Of a stretch of DNA of 64,000 nt, positions 44,950 to 56,107 are shown in pieces. A program made the translations under genes and the position numbers. Origin of the DNA: Escherichia phage UB; the sequence record MH383160. One strand, written 5' to 3'. How positions within the stretch are numbered: the first letter of the stretch is position 1; every line of letters begins with the position of its first letter. A model generated the notes under the pieces. It ran no database searches. It was not told the DNA's origin and was given only the letters and a program-made list of their open reading frames with translations.

Positions 44950-46413
44950 TTATAAAATTACTTCACCAAAAATACCATTAATATCACGTTCAATAATGTA
45001 CTCACCTTCATGTTTGGCTAAGAATTGTTTTATTACTTCAATTACATTTTGACGATGTATGTTGTTGTATGTTTCAGTATAACCATCACCTCTGTTATAA
45101 TAGCCAATATTTTTATGTGGTTTTCCACACAATGCAACAGTATGAACTTGTGTTTCTAACTCCGATGCCAAAAATCCCCCTTCTTCGGTGTGAAAAAAAA
45201 TAACTAATACATTAGTCCAAAAATTATCAACACCATACTCTTCTAAAAAAGATTTGTTAATTTTTTTAAGTCGGGGTTTGATACTGTTACCCTGTTGGGT
45301 TATTCCGAATTTATCCGATTCGTTTGTTTGATCAACGTTCATATATGAACGTGTAGGTTTGTTTTTCTTAAACCCGTACTCATTATACATTGAAAAACCA
45401 TATTCAAAACTGAAAAAATCTGCAATATTAATTTTTTGTTGAATTGAACTATCACTACGAGAATATAAAAACACACTACGGTAATTAGTGTATTCACCGT
45501 CCCAACCAATAAATGTAAACGTCACTTCATCAGTTGAGCGATTACATAATTCTTTTTTAATTTGATATTCACGCTGTTCTTTTGTCCAACGAAACCCGCC
45601 AGTACAGCGACAACTTAAATGCCCCTGTTTGAGTGTGTGCATTTCTTGCTCAAATTCACCAGTACATAAACCATTTTTTGTATATTCATCGTTTGCACAA
45701 ATTGGACATGAGTATACAAGTTTACTAAATCTCCCATAATCATTAACTGTATCACTACGCTTGAACGTGGTCTTTGGATGAAACTTACCAGTATTCATTA
45801 TTTCGTTAATGTGATTTTCCAATCCGTTATTGCTTTCACGATGATACTGTTTCTTTCTTTCATTCCCACATTTAACACATCCATCATTTGTACCATTCGA
45901 TCCAAATAAAATACCATTTATAGTTGCACTGTTCATGAGTTCATCTGGGTGATGTTCACATACAAGAGTTGGTTTATATGTATTACTTTTAATTATACCA
46001 GTTGGAATTGATAATAATTTCTTTCCAGTTTTTGAAATTTTTCTTTCTATTCGAATAATATATTGATAACGAGTCCATTTTGGTATCTCACTACAACCAC
46101 ATGGAATTATTGAATTCAAATATGACGATTGTGCAATAATATACACACCCAAACCATGCAATTGAACATCATTTGCACAAATTTTACAAATTTTAAGATA
46201 GAACTTAGCTTTGGTCTTTGGATTTCGAATTAATCCCAACAGACTTTCATCACATTCTGTATTAGTATCCTGCTCCAATTGATCAAATGAATCAGGAATT
46301 GGCAATTGTGGATGCTTTTCACGAAGAATGAATAACGAAATTCTAAATGCTTCTTCACTTTTTGCCAAGCTTAATGCATTTTCAACTTCAATTGAACGAT
46401 GTACTTTATACAT
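44950..46413 (-). CDS. large Cys-rich protein with zinc-ribbon-like modules (487 aa)
   Basis: Several CxxC/CxC pairs (CKICAND, CVKCGN, CPICAND, CRCTGG); shares the Cys module with 55334..56107. Confidence 0.55.
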   Translation of the reverse strand: MYKVHRSIEVENALSLAKSEEAFRISLFILREKHPQLPIPDSFDQLEQDTNTECDESLLGLIRNPKTKAKFYLKICKICANDVQLHGLGVYIIAQSSYLNSIIPCGCSEIPKWTRYQYIIRIERKISKTGKKLLSIPTGIIKSNTYKPTLVCEHHPDELMNSATINGILFGSNGTNDGCVKCGNERKKQYHRESNNGLENHINEIMNTGKFHPKTTFKRSDTVNDYGRFSKLVYSCPICANDEYTKNGLCTGEFEQEMHTLKQGHLSCRCTGGFRWTKEQREYQIKKELCNRSTDEVTFTFIGWDGEYTNYRSVFLYSRSDSSIQQKINIADFFSFEYGFSMYNEYGFKKNKPTRSYMNVDQTNESDKFGITQQGNSIKPRLKKINKSFLEEYGVDNFWTNVLVIFFHTEEGGFLASELETQVHTVALCGKPHKNIGYYNRGDGYTETYNNIHRQNVIEVIKQFLAKHEGEYIIERDINGIFGEVIL

Positions 46414-46456
46414 TTAAGGTTCCCATTTATTATCATATGATGAATAACAAAAAATT

Positions 46457-46696
46457 TCAAATTGAATTTGATAATATACCTTTCCAGTACTGAACCCGTC
46501 CAGCACCATTAATTTTAGCTTTAATCTTATCTTTTTCGACAAGACCTTCTTTGTAATCAATTGAAGTATTATCACACTTAATTACATCTAAGTCAAGTAC
46601 TTCTTGGGTAGTTAATGATGTATTATCTGCGATTTGTTGTAGAGTAATTACATCAGTACCGAAGTATTCTGCTAAACGTATAAAAGATAGTTTCAT
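46457..46696 (-). CDS. hypothetical protein (79 aa)
   Basis: ORF; terminator/promoter hairpin cassette upstream (46730..46754). Confidence 0.5.
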   Translation of the reverse strand: MKLSFIRLAEYFGTDVITLQQIADNTSLTTQEVLDLDVIKCDNTSIDYKEGLVEKDKIKAKINGAGRVQYWKGILSNSI

Positions 46697-46729
46697 GTAT
46701 TACCTCTCGTTTCGATAAAATAATTATAG

Positions 46730-46754
46730 CAAAAAGGGCTGACCGAAGTCAACC
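46730..46754 (-). terminator. Hairpin terminator/promoter cassette (UUCG loop on the minus strand)
   Basis: Minus strand GGGUUGACuucgGUCAGCCC with a G-U wobble, then UUUUUGC-TATAAT, SD GAGAGG, ATG 46696. Confidence 0.6.
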
Positions 46755-46761
46755 CTTTATG

Positions 46762-53675: not shown

Positions 53676-53711
53676 TGTAATCCCTCTTCTTAATTCCTCT
53701 TTTGTATTTAC

Positions 53712-53737
53712 AAAAAAAGGCTGACCGAAGTCAACCT
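53712..53737 (-). terminator. Hairpin terminator/promoter cassette
   Basis: AAAAAAAGGCTGACCGAAGTCAACC between 53747..55294 and 53424..53675. Confidence 0.55.
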
Positions 53738-53746
53738 TTTGTTTTA

Positions 53747-55294
53747 TCATTTACCGTATTTGCTCATGATGTCCTTTTCCCAAGGAGTTACATTTCCATT
53801 TTCGTAATCACGGAAAGAGTCATCAAGTGTAGTCAATGCATAATCATATGCCTCACCGGATTCAACATCAATATCAACAGCACCATTCACTACATCAGTC
53901 CACGCTTTTTGTAGTTTACGAGCGTTGTTACCAACTTTATCTTTAATCCAACTAAGATTTCGGTTTATACTCTTCTTATCAGCACCAGCTTTTTCACCAA
54001 CATCTGCAACCCATTGCATTAATTTCTGTAGTTCGTTATGGGATTTTTCAGTCATTTGGCGGTCTTGTGACAGTTCAGCTTCCATGTCATCAATTTCTTC
54101 GTCTGAATGAACATCTTTCTGTTCAACTGCACCTTCTTCATCTGCACGCTTTAGATAACCATCTGGTGTTACCTTCTCACCATGTTCAGCTTCATACTTT
54201 TTCATAGTGTTGAATGCAGCATCCATAGCTGTTACGAAGCGGCTTTTCTCACCTTGTACATAAGATTTAAGTACGCTGTTAACAGCGTCAGATACGAGCT
54301 TAACCTTATCGTCTTTACCTTCTAAACGGTTTTCAAGTTTAGCTAGTACATTCTTGACTTGCTGTGCATTAGCACGGTCTGCTTTACCAATACTATCAAA
54401 AGTTTTAAGAATACTTTCCAGATTAACATCATCGTGTGAGTGTTCATCAAACTCAATATCATTATTTTCGTCTTCATCCTTGAGCGTTAATCCCATTGAT
54501 GTGAGGTCATCAGCAGCACTTGACATTGACATACGAACTGCACGAGAATCATTTACATCATCTACATTTTCAATTGCCATATCAATAATGTACAGTGCTT
54601 TCTCTAAGTCTGTATATTGTTTAGCTTGATTGATAATATCGTTCACAAACTTAGCACCTAAGTAATCATTTACTTCACGGAATTCGTCTTCAGACATTCT
54701 TCCACTAGGTTTGCTTGGTTGTTGATCGGTCTTTTGTGGTAAGGATTTCTGTTTACCTTCAAGTGCACGCATGATAGTACTGAATACTTCAGTAGGTTCA
54801 GTACTGGTATTTCCACTCATTGCATCAAGTACAGCTTGTGCTTTGACTTTTAATTCTTCTTTAGGTACAGATTGCAATTCTTTCACAATACCTTGGATAA
54901 GTTGTGGTTTATTAGCAAAAATCTTACCTAACTTATCAGACAGTTCTTTGACAGGGTTAACCGCCTTTGGTGCTTCTTGTTTTGGTTCTTCTTTCGCAGG
55001 AGCAGACTTTTCTTTTTCTTCACGTTCCATATCAGCTAGGCGTTGTTTTTGTGTAGCATTAAGAAGTCCCAATGAATTAACATAACGTAGCTTTTCTAGC
55101 TCAGTCATATTGGAAGTATCAGTGCCTTGTGTTGCTACTGTGTTTGCTTTACCAGCTTCACCAGTCCCCATGTTTCTAGAACCTTTAGAACCTTGACCTG
55201 CCATATGTGAATTAGGTCTGCGATTTTTTTCTGACCACTTCTCGCTGTGTCCAGAAATGGTAGCACCATTTTTTGATTTGAAATTATCTGGCAT
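53747..55294 (-). CDS. large hydrophilic acidic protein (515 aa), function unknown
   Basis: GGAGA SD; Gly/Ser-rich N-terminus; LEKLRYVNSLGLL module shared with 56185..56568. Confidence 0.6.
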   Translation of the reverse strand: MPDNFKSKNGATISGHSEKWSEKNRRPNSHMAGQGSKGSRNMGTGEAGKANTVATQGTDTSNMTELEKLRYVNSLGLLNATQKQRLADMEREEKEKSAPAKEEPKQEAPKAVNPVKELSDKLGKIFANKPQLIQGIVKELQSVPKEELKVKAQAVLDAMSGNTSTEPTEVFSTIMRALEGKQKSLPQKTDQQPSKPSGRMSEDEFREVNDYLGAKFVNDIINQAKQYTDLEKALYIIDMAIENVDDVNDSRAVRMSMSSAADDLTSMGLTLKDEDENNDIEFDEHSHDDVNLESILKTFDSIGKADRANAQQVKNVLAKLENRLEGKDDKVKLVSDAVNSVLKSYVQGEKSRFVTAMDAAFNTMKKYEAEHGEKVTPDGYLKRADEEGAVEQKDVHSDEEIDDMEAELSQDRQMTEKSHNELQKLMQWVADVGEKAGADKKSINRNLSWIKDKVGNNARKLQKAWTDVVNGAVDIDVESGEAYDYALTTLDDSFRDYENGNVTPWEKDIMSKYGK

Positions 55295-55333
55295 ATCTAT
55301 TTCTCCATAAAATAATAATACCTATGATTTTAT

Positions 55334-56107
55334 TTATATATTACCATAGATATCCATCCTAGTCAATCTATATTTGTCATTATCAATGATAGTTAATAAT
55401 CTATCTATATCTTTTACGTCTATTGTTTCTGTATAACCACATTTAAACACTGATTTGTTCAAAAACTTACATTTTATTTCTTTTTTAATTATTTTTTCTA
55501 ATTCATTAATTAAATTTCCGTCATTGGAAAAATAACAAATATAAGGAACTGATCGATATTTGTTGGCATTATATTTTCTAAATCTATTTTTACAATTTCC
55601 TGTAATGCCAAATTTATATGATACTAAATTACCAATAGTATCATAAATTTCATTTATATATAAAAATCCAGGTTTGTTGATATCATAACCAGTCTTACTA
55701 CATGATGGACAATTTGTATTAGTATTAATAAAATGATTATAAGAACATTTCCAAGAAGGATGATCAATTATATCACAGTTCAATTCAAGAATAGTGTTTA
55801 TAGAGCCATTAAAAATATATTCTTTACAAGTATATTTTTTCTCTTTACATTTTTGTATAACTCTATCACGGGCAGTTTGTTCTTTGAGAATGTTTCTCCC
55901 ATTACATTCAGGACACCCAGTTCCTTTGTAAATAAACTTTTTAAAAGAACAATTCCATCGTTCGTGTTCTGGATTGGGGCATTTTAAAATTAGTCTTGTG
56001 TTCGTGTTTATATAAACAAATTCTTCACATTTGTAGTTTTTGTCATTGCATATTTTATATACTTTTTCTTCAGCTTCTTTTTGTGTCAATTTAATACCAC
56101 TAGCCAT
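55334..56107 (-). CDS. Cys-rich protein with possible GIY-YIG-like segment (257 aa)
   Basis: Two CP..E..W.CS...F......CP.C modules; C-terminal GFLYINEIYDTIGNLVSYKFGITG..R loosely resembles GIY..YIG..R. Confidence 0.5.
   Translation of the reverse strand: MASGIKLTQKEAEEKVYKICNDKNYKCEEFVYINTNTRLILKCPNPEHERWNCSFKKFIYKGTGCPECNGRNILKEQTARDRVIQKCKEKKYTCKEYIFNGSINTILELNCDIIDHPSWKCSYNHFINTNTNCPSCSKTGYDINKPGFLYINEIYDTIGNLVSYKFGITGNCKNRFRKYNANKYRSVPYICYFSNDGNLINELEKIIKKEIKCKFLNKSVFKCGYTETIDVKDIDRLLTIIDNDKYRLTRMDIYGNI

Follow-up and report, generated by a model that had tools for sequence, protein, structure and literature searches.

Three putative free-standing homing endonuclease genes among the early genes of an Asteriusvirus jumbo phage

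Are the small HNH protein and the two cysteine-rich proteins encoded between positions 44,950 and 56,107 of a stretch of Escherichia phage UB DNA (record MH383160; 64,000 nt in full, referred to here as the window) free-standing homing endonucleases, and could they help to explain the mosaicism of this region? A preliminary description of the letters had raised this possibility for three open reading frames (ORFs), at 44950..46413 (ORF A), 48031..48444 (ORF B), and 55334..56107 (ORF C), all of which were called again at exactly these coordinates. The source region belongs to an Asteriusvirus (Rak2-like) jumbo phage; it is 96.5% identical to Escherichia phage 121Q over 86% of its length, and about 60 other Asteriusvirus records also match it. 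We consider it probable (roughly 80%) that the three ORFs, which lie among the early genes of this phage, are free-standing homing endonuclease genes (HEGs). Their products can be assigned to known kinds of nucleases, and each gene is optional at a fixed intergenic site among relatives that are about 97% identical, with the neighboring genes undisrupted. The role of these HEGs as the cause of the regional mosaicism is correlative.

Domains of the three proteins

The ORF C product (257 amino acids, aa) was 100% identical to a protein of Escherichia phage UB that is named "Homing endonuclease" in UniProt. Word-indexed protein searches returned few homologues (3, 19, and 7), and an exhaustive HMMER search with ORF C returned 2037 cluster representatives at E ≤ 1e-3, 31 of which were aligned with ORF C to give a family alignment of 32 sequences. 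The two zinc-ribbon-like modules noticed earlier were recovered by hidden Markov model (HMM) as tandem Cys modules, and two sets of conserved zinc ligands were found in the family (C43, C65, and C68; C111, C133, and C136). The segment GFLYI..SYKFGIT..R, which had been compared loosely with GIY-YIG, proved to be real: GFLY (150), YKFGIT (165-169), and R175 fall on conserved columns of the alignment. The conserved C-terminal set comprises Y150, K165, G167, I168, R175, G197, the invariant E204, and G224-x-T226-E227-T228. Among the 32 members, Pfam matches were obtained to DUF4379 (25), CapR (23), DUF723 (16), MUG113 (11), and T5orf172 (9), with best E values of 8e-9 for MUG113 and 4e-8 for T5orf172; for ORF C alone, DUF4379 scored 19.6 bits against a cutoff of 24.5. 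In a profile search of Protein Data Bank (PDB) sequences, the family matched the solved DUF4379 protein 6sga_Fd (E 4e-5); this sequence-only search found the DUF4379 zinc ribbon and no GIY-YIG entry.

The AlphaFold2 model of ORF C was predicted with high confidence (mean predicted local distance difference test score, pLDDT, 93.2). Its C-terminal domain consists of a strand (147-155), a second strand (161-169), a helix (172-179), a third strand (185-194), and two further helices (197-210 and 231-242), and fold comparison placed it with the GIY-YIG alpha/beta fold. On this model, strand 1 contains the Tyr and strand 2 the K-F-G motif; the Arg follows the Gly at a distance of 8 residues, and the invariant Glu is part of the helix after strand 3. 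From published knowledge of I-TevI and UvrC and from the spacing, not from a superposition, we take these residues to correspond to Y6, Y17, R27, and E75 of I-TevI. The alignment used for the ICP1 protein Odn relates the same positions to GIY, YIG, the Arg, and the catalytic Glu (PMC8263062). Thus, the GIY-YIG-like segment of the preliminary description does mark a nuclease domain, whose resemblance is to the T5orf172/MUG113 branch of the GIY-YIG clan and not to canonical GIY-YIG. As an observation apart, eight places in phage RaK2 match ORF C.

The ORF A product is the same in kind as that of 121Q gene 221 and 99% identical to the 121Q copy; it is listed in UniProt as a "CapR homology domain-containing protein" of phage UB and in BFVD as A0A2Z5H914. 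Pfam CapR (PF21817) matched three stretches with 82.7 bits (cutoff 24.2), the best of them aa 203-271, and PHROG 681 ("endonuclease") covered aa 1-484 (E 3e-76). CapR-type zinc-finger modules are indicated both by this Pfam match above the cutoff and by the ligand pattern CxxC..CxC, which occurs as C76/C79..C104/C106 and C236/C239..C268/C270, with a DUF4379-like unit (aa ~107-182) in between. In the preliminary description, a possible GIY-YIG-like segment had been noticed in one of the two cysteine-rich proteins. This has to be corrected, since ORF A also carries the domain, at aa 346-468. The nuclease HMM of the ORF C family matched aa 347-466 of ORF A over its full length (24.5 bits, E 4e-7, against a set of 372 window ORFs, which comprises those of 50 aa or more in all six frames). 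The catalytic-type residues of ORF A are Y357, K368-F-G370, R381, E420, and E447; G370, R381, E420, and E447 were invariant among 20 homologues, and three of these homologues (P0016, P0017, and P0020) were matched by Pfam T5orf172 (PF10544) itself.

That ORF A and ORF C share a Cys module had also been proposed, and the evidence goes further. Direct BLASTP between the two proteins was not significant (E 0.44), but both matched phrog_681 (ORF C with E 1e-42), and hhalign joined their family alignments with a probability of 100% and an E value of 2.1e-43. In this comparison, module 1 of ORF C corresponds to aa 107-182 of ORF A, module 2 to aa 274-345, and the nuclease domain to aa 346-468. Therefore, given the additional Cys units, ORF A can be described as the ORF C architecture with extra CapR-type units inserted. 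The nuclease-domain HMM matched just two of the 372 ORFs, ORF C (E 2e-36) and ORF A, and in a viral structure library the ORF C model matched the public model of ORF A (E 8e-12). The similarity of the two is real at profile level, and they belong to one family. A nuclease domain was found in both cysteine-rich proteins, the result on which the earlier proposal had been staked.

Identification of ORF B as an HNH protein was borne out by PHROG matches, invariant residues, and fold. Its sequence contains CSIC..DFHH..CVILCSNHHRMVH, and four PHROG HNH families matched it (E 1.8e-31, 3.7e-14, 1e-8, and 5.5e-6). Ten residues were invariant in 8 homologues (C70, C73, F83, H84, H85, C113, C117, N119, H121, and H125), and among the 372 ORFs the pattern CxxC..HH..N..H fitted ORF B alone. 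In the model (pLDDT 85.6), two strands and a helix span the conserved residues, so that the His/Asn/His and Cys4 positions and the beta-beta-alpha fold of an HNH nuclease are all in place. NCBIfam gave nothing for ORF B, and in the profile search of PDB sequences with the HNH family the McrA HNH motif was the only match, at a non-significant E of 0.35.

Occupancy of the three insertion sites

The occupancy of the sites was determined from the spacing of anchors in 12 relatives and from the breakpoints of BLAST alignments to four. Global alignment with MAFFT gave misleading gap edges at the insertions, so the edges were taken from these breakpoints and from the junctions as read directly. When phages lacking the ORFs were compared, as had been recommended at the outset, the HNH site was found empty, full, or with a remnant, site A was empty in phage UE-S1, and ORF C was unique to the present phage in the 12 relatives compared.

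The clearest series was obtained at the HNH site (site B). The empty allele of 121Q, PBECO4, and UE-S1 reads ..GGGCTGACCGAAGTCAACCCTTTT|CTTTATTCAA, and the window has about 404 bp between these points; therefore, the HNH gene is placed precisely after the stop codon of its upstream neighbor (48441..48746) and before the hairpin of that neighbor. The ATG of ORF B overlaps the upstream stop codon (ATGA), its own stop TGA lies within the hairpin arm GGGTTGA, and its translation is probably coupled to the upstream gene. Among the 12 relatives, three have the empty site (55 bp), five a remnant of about 143 bp, and two the full gene, while CMSTMSU has a partial copy of 316 bp and Salmonella phage SD-2_S15 a local deletion. 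Nine phage records carry the full HNH gene (94-97% identity, no frameshifts) and seven the remnant only. The remnant is an in-frame internal deletion; in phAPEC6, the first 13 nt are joined to the last 81 nt at an ACACTT microhomology, a textbook decay product.

Site A lies between an AAA-ATPase-like gene (43753..44523) and a gene for a 119-aa protein (46762..47121). The whole variable block is common to the window and 121Q only (99% identity), and five alleles fill the slot in phages that are about 97% identical: the 487-aa gene of ORF A type (the window and 121Q), a 372/371-aa gene (JP4 and vB_Ec-M-J), a 474-aa gene (BAU_ELP-22 and SHEFM2K), a 628-aa gene (phAPEC6 and slurp01), and a 379-aa gene (PBECO4). 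The cleanest empty site is that of UE-S1, with 70 bp between the anchors. Salmonella phage SD-2_S15 has 363 bp with an 86-aa ORF and no endonuclease gene, and the right-hand anchor was not found in Turkey3 and CMSTMSU. In total, endonuclease alleles occupy the site in 8 of the 12 relatives and are lacking in 2, and in the other 2 the anchors could not be placed. The T5orf172-like domain of ORF A is also present in the 628- and 379-aa alleles. The nuclease HMM matched neither the 372-aa allele, which was assigned to PHROG homing and intron-nuclease families instead, nor the 474-aa allele, for which the SHEFM2K record annotates phrog 9084 ("homing endonuclease"); alleles of the JP4 and BAU_ELP-22 types had no Pfam match, and only the PHROG "homing endonuclease" or "intron encoded nuclease" families recognized them, although a Vsr/DUF559-like motif may be present. 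The PBECO4 allele is 61% identical in aa to ORF A at the nuclease end only, not in the DNA-binding part, and 42% identical to the JP4 allele in the first 90 residues only, the JP4 nuclease being different. Because it shares one end with ORF A and the other with JP4, modules have been exchanged among the alleles of this site. We suggest tentatively, as a view that may well prove wrong, that site A is a place where endonucleases naturally compete and exchange modules almost in real time. The 108-aa ORF beside ORF A begins with a signal-peptide-like segment (MKKLMLVMLMCLSTTVNA), had no Pfam or PHROG match, and accompanies ORF A in 121Q and partly in PBECO4.

At site C, the segment of 121Q that ORF C replaces consists of a 37-aa ORF (gene 200) and a hairpin/promoter cassette. 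Of the 12 relatives, eight have this small-ORF allele, one has a spacing of 99 bp, and the remaining three hold about 880 bp of other cargo; ORF C occurs in none of the 12. No copy with more than 60% identity was found in 50,697 phage records. One metagenomic contig contains a 76%-identical copy, which is joined to the same 5′ end of the structural gene and has unrelated genes upstream.

The sequence identity to relatives is about 99% over most of the region, but next to site A it drops to 89-96%, and on the upstream side of the HNH gene to 87-97%. Values of 64-84% were obtained downstream of ORF C, and on its opposite side the identity rises abruptly to 97-98% again. As to the surroundings of site C, the two structural genes flanking ORF C (53747-55294 and 56185-56568) are partial paralogues, both matching phrog_16530 and phrog_20398. 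The first of them (515 aa) is strongly mosaic, segments that are 80% identical to 121Q/PBECO4 and 100% identical to JP4/phAPEC6 alternating with the reverse pattern, and it has indels at ~54060-54110 and 54440-54750.

Moreover, each of the three endonuclease insertions abuts a copy of an intergenic cassette. This cassette of about 70 bp recurs on the minus strand between early genes, in copies 80-90% identical to each other (44552-44581, 46723-46752, 48005-48034, 52620-52649, ~53709-53740, and 56146-56177). It consists of a GC-rich hairpin (e.g., GGGTTGACTACGGTCAGCCC followed by a T-run), the arm of which gives a TTGACT -35 element, and of (TG)TATAAT 18 nt further on; it looks like a combined terminator and early-promoter unit. 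ORF C also has an AAGGA ribosome-binding site 9 nt before its ATG, and ORF A is preceded by a weaker promoter-like site with a GGGA ribosome-binding site close by.

Table 1. Coordinates, strand, and basis of the features assigned in the window
Feature	Coordinates	Strand	Basis or remark
Hairpin/promoter cassette	44552..44581	-	Downstream edge of site A block
Site A variable block: ORF A and 108-aa signal-peptide ORF (44603..44929)	44589..46471	.	BLAST breakpoints, occupancy table
ORF A, 487 aa, multi-zinc-finger and T5orf172-like putative homing endonuclease	44950..46413	-	ORF call, Pfam CapR, phrog_681, hhalign
T5orf172-like (GIY-YIG clan) nuclease domain of ORF A (aa 346-468)	45010..45378	-	ORF C-family nuclease HMM, hhalign
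Degenerate fourth module of ORF A (aa 274-345)	45379..45594	-	hhalign to ORF C module 2 (aa 69-139)
Zinc-finger DNA-binding array of ORF A (aa 74-271)	45601..46194	-	Pfam CapR, Cys spacing, hhalign
Hairpin/promoter cassette (TTGACT-18-TATAAT, with TG)	48005..48034	-	Directly downstream of HNH gene; left edge of HNH insertion
ORF B, 137 aa, HNH endonuclease; N-terminal Cys4 ribbon aa 4-32, HNH core aa 70-125 (nt 48070-48237)	48031..48444	-	
HNH insertion relative to empty allele of 121Q, PBECO4, UE-S1	48052..48455	.	BLAST breakpoints and junction sequences
ORF C block at site C	55306..56148	.	Replaces 223-bp segment of 121Q; breakpoints, alignment, occupancy table
ORF C, 257 aa, two zinc modules and T5orf172/MUG113-like nuclease domain (aa 140-248, nt 55364-55690)	55334..56107	-	
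ORF C zinc module 2 (aa 74-138)	55694..55888	-	HMM domain score 67 bits
ORF C zinc module 1 (aa 5-71)	55895..56095	-	HMM domain score 82 bits
Hairpin and sigma70-like promoter (TTGACT-18-TATAGT)	56146..56177	-	About 40 nt upstream of ORF C start; promoter/terminator scan

All genes at 43-58 kb were on the minus strand in the ORF list, and no tRNA genes were found in the window. The neighbors of the three ORFs include genes for a DenV-type pyrimidine-dimer glycosylase, an AAA-type ATPase, a gp0.7-like protein kinase, and two virion structural proteins. Other differences between relatives were observed nearby. At ~49101-49108, an extra 252-nt gene (121Q gene 214) is present in 121Q and several other phages and absent from the window; at 47182-47572, phAPEC6 and PBECO4 are without the 64-aa ORF 47228..47422, and their DenV has 144 aa as against 171 aa. 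Further endonuclease-type genes occur at other positions close by in relatives; for example, in Turkey3 (locus 6356-7654), a gene for a 432-aa "DUF4379 domain-containing protein" lies between an 80-aa gene and denV, and in Salmonella phage SD-2_S15 (locus 4070-4798) a 243-aa "endonuclease" gene lies near the studied sites. Two sets of three tandem genes (42661-43687 and 50569-51604) each encode predicted multi-pass membrane proteins of about 113 aa, and the copy number of the first set differs between relatives. Farther away, at 25978-40222 on the plus strand, there is a tandem array of 12 paralogous genes, each encoding 250-450 aa (pairwise identity 25-38%, E down to 1e-58). The array occupies the only plus-strand block of the window, a block that matches in position the switch of the GC skew (~21 kb and ~40 kb).

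Homing and its alternatives

The preliminary idea that free-standing homing endonucleases are at work is supported by the optional presence of the genes at fixed sites, the decayed remnant, the turnover of alleles, and the drop in identity beside each gene. In the mechanism that we propose, the small N-terminal zinc-finger modules of ORF A and ORF C (CapR/DUF4379/DUF723 type) would read a long DNA target. They would be tethered to a C-terminal nuclease of T5orf172/MUG113 type, a variant of the GIY-YIG fold with K-x-G replacing Y-x-G, the Arg and Glu of which would perform metal-dependent cleavage. ORF B would be a small enzyme of the HNH (beta-beta-alpha-Me) type that carries a Cys4 ribbon at its N terminus. 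When a relative without the gene infects the same cell, each enzyme would cleave the cognate locus in that relative's genome; during recombinational repair with the HEG-carrying genome as donor, the gene and part of its flanks would then be copied into the cleaved genome.

Several observations weigh against this interpretation. We infer the nuclease activity, the target sites, and the homing of all three proteins, and in the studies cited here (PMC8096241, PMC10448857, PMC8263062) homing by T5orf172 proteins is itself inferred and not directly demonstrated. In Pfam and NCBIfam scans, no nuclease model exceeded its threshold for the three window proteins alone: ORF C scored 16.0-17.8 bits for MUG113 (cutoff 22.3) and 14.7 for T5orf172 (cutoff 20), ORF A gave no score for either even when the domain was scanned alone, and ORF B remained below threshold for HNH_2 (13.9-16 bits, cutoff 21). 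Therefore, membership rests on transitive homology, fold, and residues; for T5orf172/MUG113, transitive homology, the GIY-YIG fold, and catalytic-type residues were found in place of a direct Pfam match. The fourth module of ORF A has lost its Cys ligands, as in its closest relatives, while homologues retain C..C..C. ORF C is a replacement and not a clean insertion, and its occurrence at a single site in a single phage does not demonstrate repeated mobility. Since other relatives carry non-nuclease cargo at site C, variability there needs no HEG, and since the neighboring structural gene is mosaic throughout, the identity drop by ORF C may partly reflect that gene's own variability.

The alternative that survives best, though we consider it improbable, is that one or more of the proteins have been domesticated and no longer home, serving as a DNA-binding regulator or as a nuclease against competitors, satellites, or host DNA. 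The precedents are the CapR regulator of PLE, the autorepression of I-TevI, and the ICP1 nuclease Odn; CapR is an HEG-derived repressor, and Odn is a T5orf172 nuclease used in defense (PMC8096241, PMC8263062). The degenerate zinc module of ORF A would agree with such a role, as would the position of ORF C directly upstream of a virion structural gene, whose own hairpin/promoter cassette it has replaced. However, both ORF A and ORF C have retained their catalytic-type residues, which would be unexpected for a pure DNA binder, and the idea that these two are purely DNA-binding regulators was rejected for this reason. All three genes are, moreover, dispensable in close relatives, and site A has turned over between unrelated nuclease classes; therefore, selfish elements fit better than a fixed host function. 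For ORF C, which has come to occupy the former place of a structural gene's promoter cassette, domestication keeps some probability.

Less probable still, by about half, is the view that the genes are inactive relics, former HEGs that are decaying and carried passively. The internally deleted HNH gene in seven related phage records, the Cys ligands lost from one ORF A module, and the very few close relatives of ORF C point in this direction. Against this, all three window ORFs are full length with intact motifs, the HNH gene has kept its identity without frameshifts in nine phage records and ORF A its near identity to the 121Q copy, and ORF C comes with a promoter-like site and a ribosome-binding site of its own. 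That ORF B is a DNA-packaging or terminase accessory HNH protein like HK97 gp74, a role common among phage HNH proteins of ~100-140 aa, can be dismissed as very improbable, because it lies among early genes beside denV with no terminase adjacent, and it is absent or deleted in most close relatives and therefore not essential for packaging.

If the three genes are read as free-standing HEGs, the result is of use for annotation and for the reading of mosaicism in Asteriusvirus genomes, since three optional genes are named and three local synteny breaks explained. At Pfam thresholds, neither the HNH core of ORF B nor the nuclease domain of the two cysteine-rich proteins is detected. The site A slot and the full, remnant, and empty states of the HNH site are natural examples of the cycle of invasion, decay, and replacement, and they could be test material for T5orf172 homing. 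If each site A allele targets the same empty site, the alleles would form a ready series for how CapR-type finger arrays specify DNA targets, and would tell whether T5orf172 domains work with any binding array.

Comparison with known endonucleases

ORF B has the Cys4-stabilized core CxxC..HH..CxxxCxNxH..H in common with T4 Mob-type and other free-standing phage HNH enzymes and with the structural relatives Hpy99I, McrA, and PacI. Like the free-standing phage enzymes, it is a small protein encoded by an optional intergenic insertion. It differs from them in belonging to PHROG family 2255, in being barely detected by Pfam HNH, and in having its zinc ribbon at the N terminus, not the C terminus.

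Compared with the canonical GIY-YIG proteins (I-TevI, the T4 Seg proteins, and SLX1), ORF A and ORF C have K-F-G in place of the second motif Y-x-G, an extra conserved G-Y-T-E-T motif, and a nuclease domain at the C terminus, whereas that of I-TevI is N-terminal. For DNA binding, they have zinc-finger repeats instead of the helix-turn-helix of canonical GIY-YIG homing endonucleases. ICP1 Odn (Gp88) likewise has a T5orf172 nuclease domain in which the Arg and Glu are conserved, and it is the one such protein whose nuclease activity, dependent on the conserved Glu (E180A), has been shown (PMC8263062). In contrast to ORF A and ORF C, it binds DNA through a RepA_N domain acquired from the PLE satellite, and its role is defense, not homing (PMC8263062).

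The closest classical homologue of ORF C is the putative endonuclease T5.141 of phage T5 (with the RB49 ORF239c-like proteins of T4-like phages), which is of the same length class (250 aa) and aligned over 94% of the length with 28.8% identity (tblastn E 1e-11). Its gene is likewise free-standing and sits closely between a terminator on its upstream side and a structural gene, that of the tape measure protein, on its downstream side. The identity is low, the host genome and the insertion site are different, and T5.141 is itself uncharacterized.

T5orf172 HEGs with repeated CapR/DUF723-type zinc fingers were described by Netter et al. (PMC8096241) and Barth et al. (PMC10448857), and T5 Orf141 was named there as a relative. 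Such HEGs show variable presence, decay, replacement at the same site by other classes, domain shuffling, and location at exchange boundaries (PMC8096241, PMC10448857). Gp53, 121, 130, 165, and 174 of ICP1 resemble ORF A and ORF C in their C-terminal T5orf172 domain and in CapR/DUF723-type modules with CxxC..CxC arranged as "beads on a string" (PMC8096241, PMC10448857), and the window genes resemble them in each of these modes of variation. They differ in being found in the Vibrio phage ICP1 and not in an E. coli Asteriusvirus, and the window proteins fall below the Pfam cutoffs for T5orf172 and MUG113; ORF A differs further in having four modules, one of which is degenerate. The three proteins are thus uncharacterized members of well-described kinds, already labeled as such in public databases, and they leave the current understanding of HEGs unchanged; optional selfish nuclease genes of these types are a usual sight in large lytic phages. 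Every feature that we found fits the published description of T5orf172/CapR HEGs.

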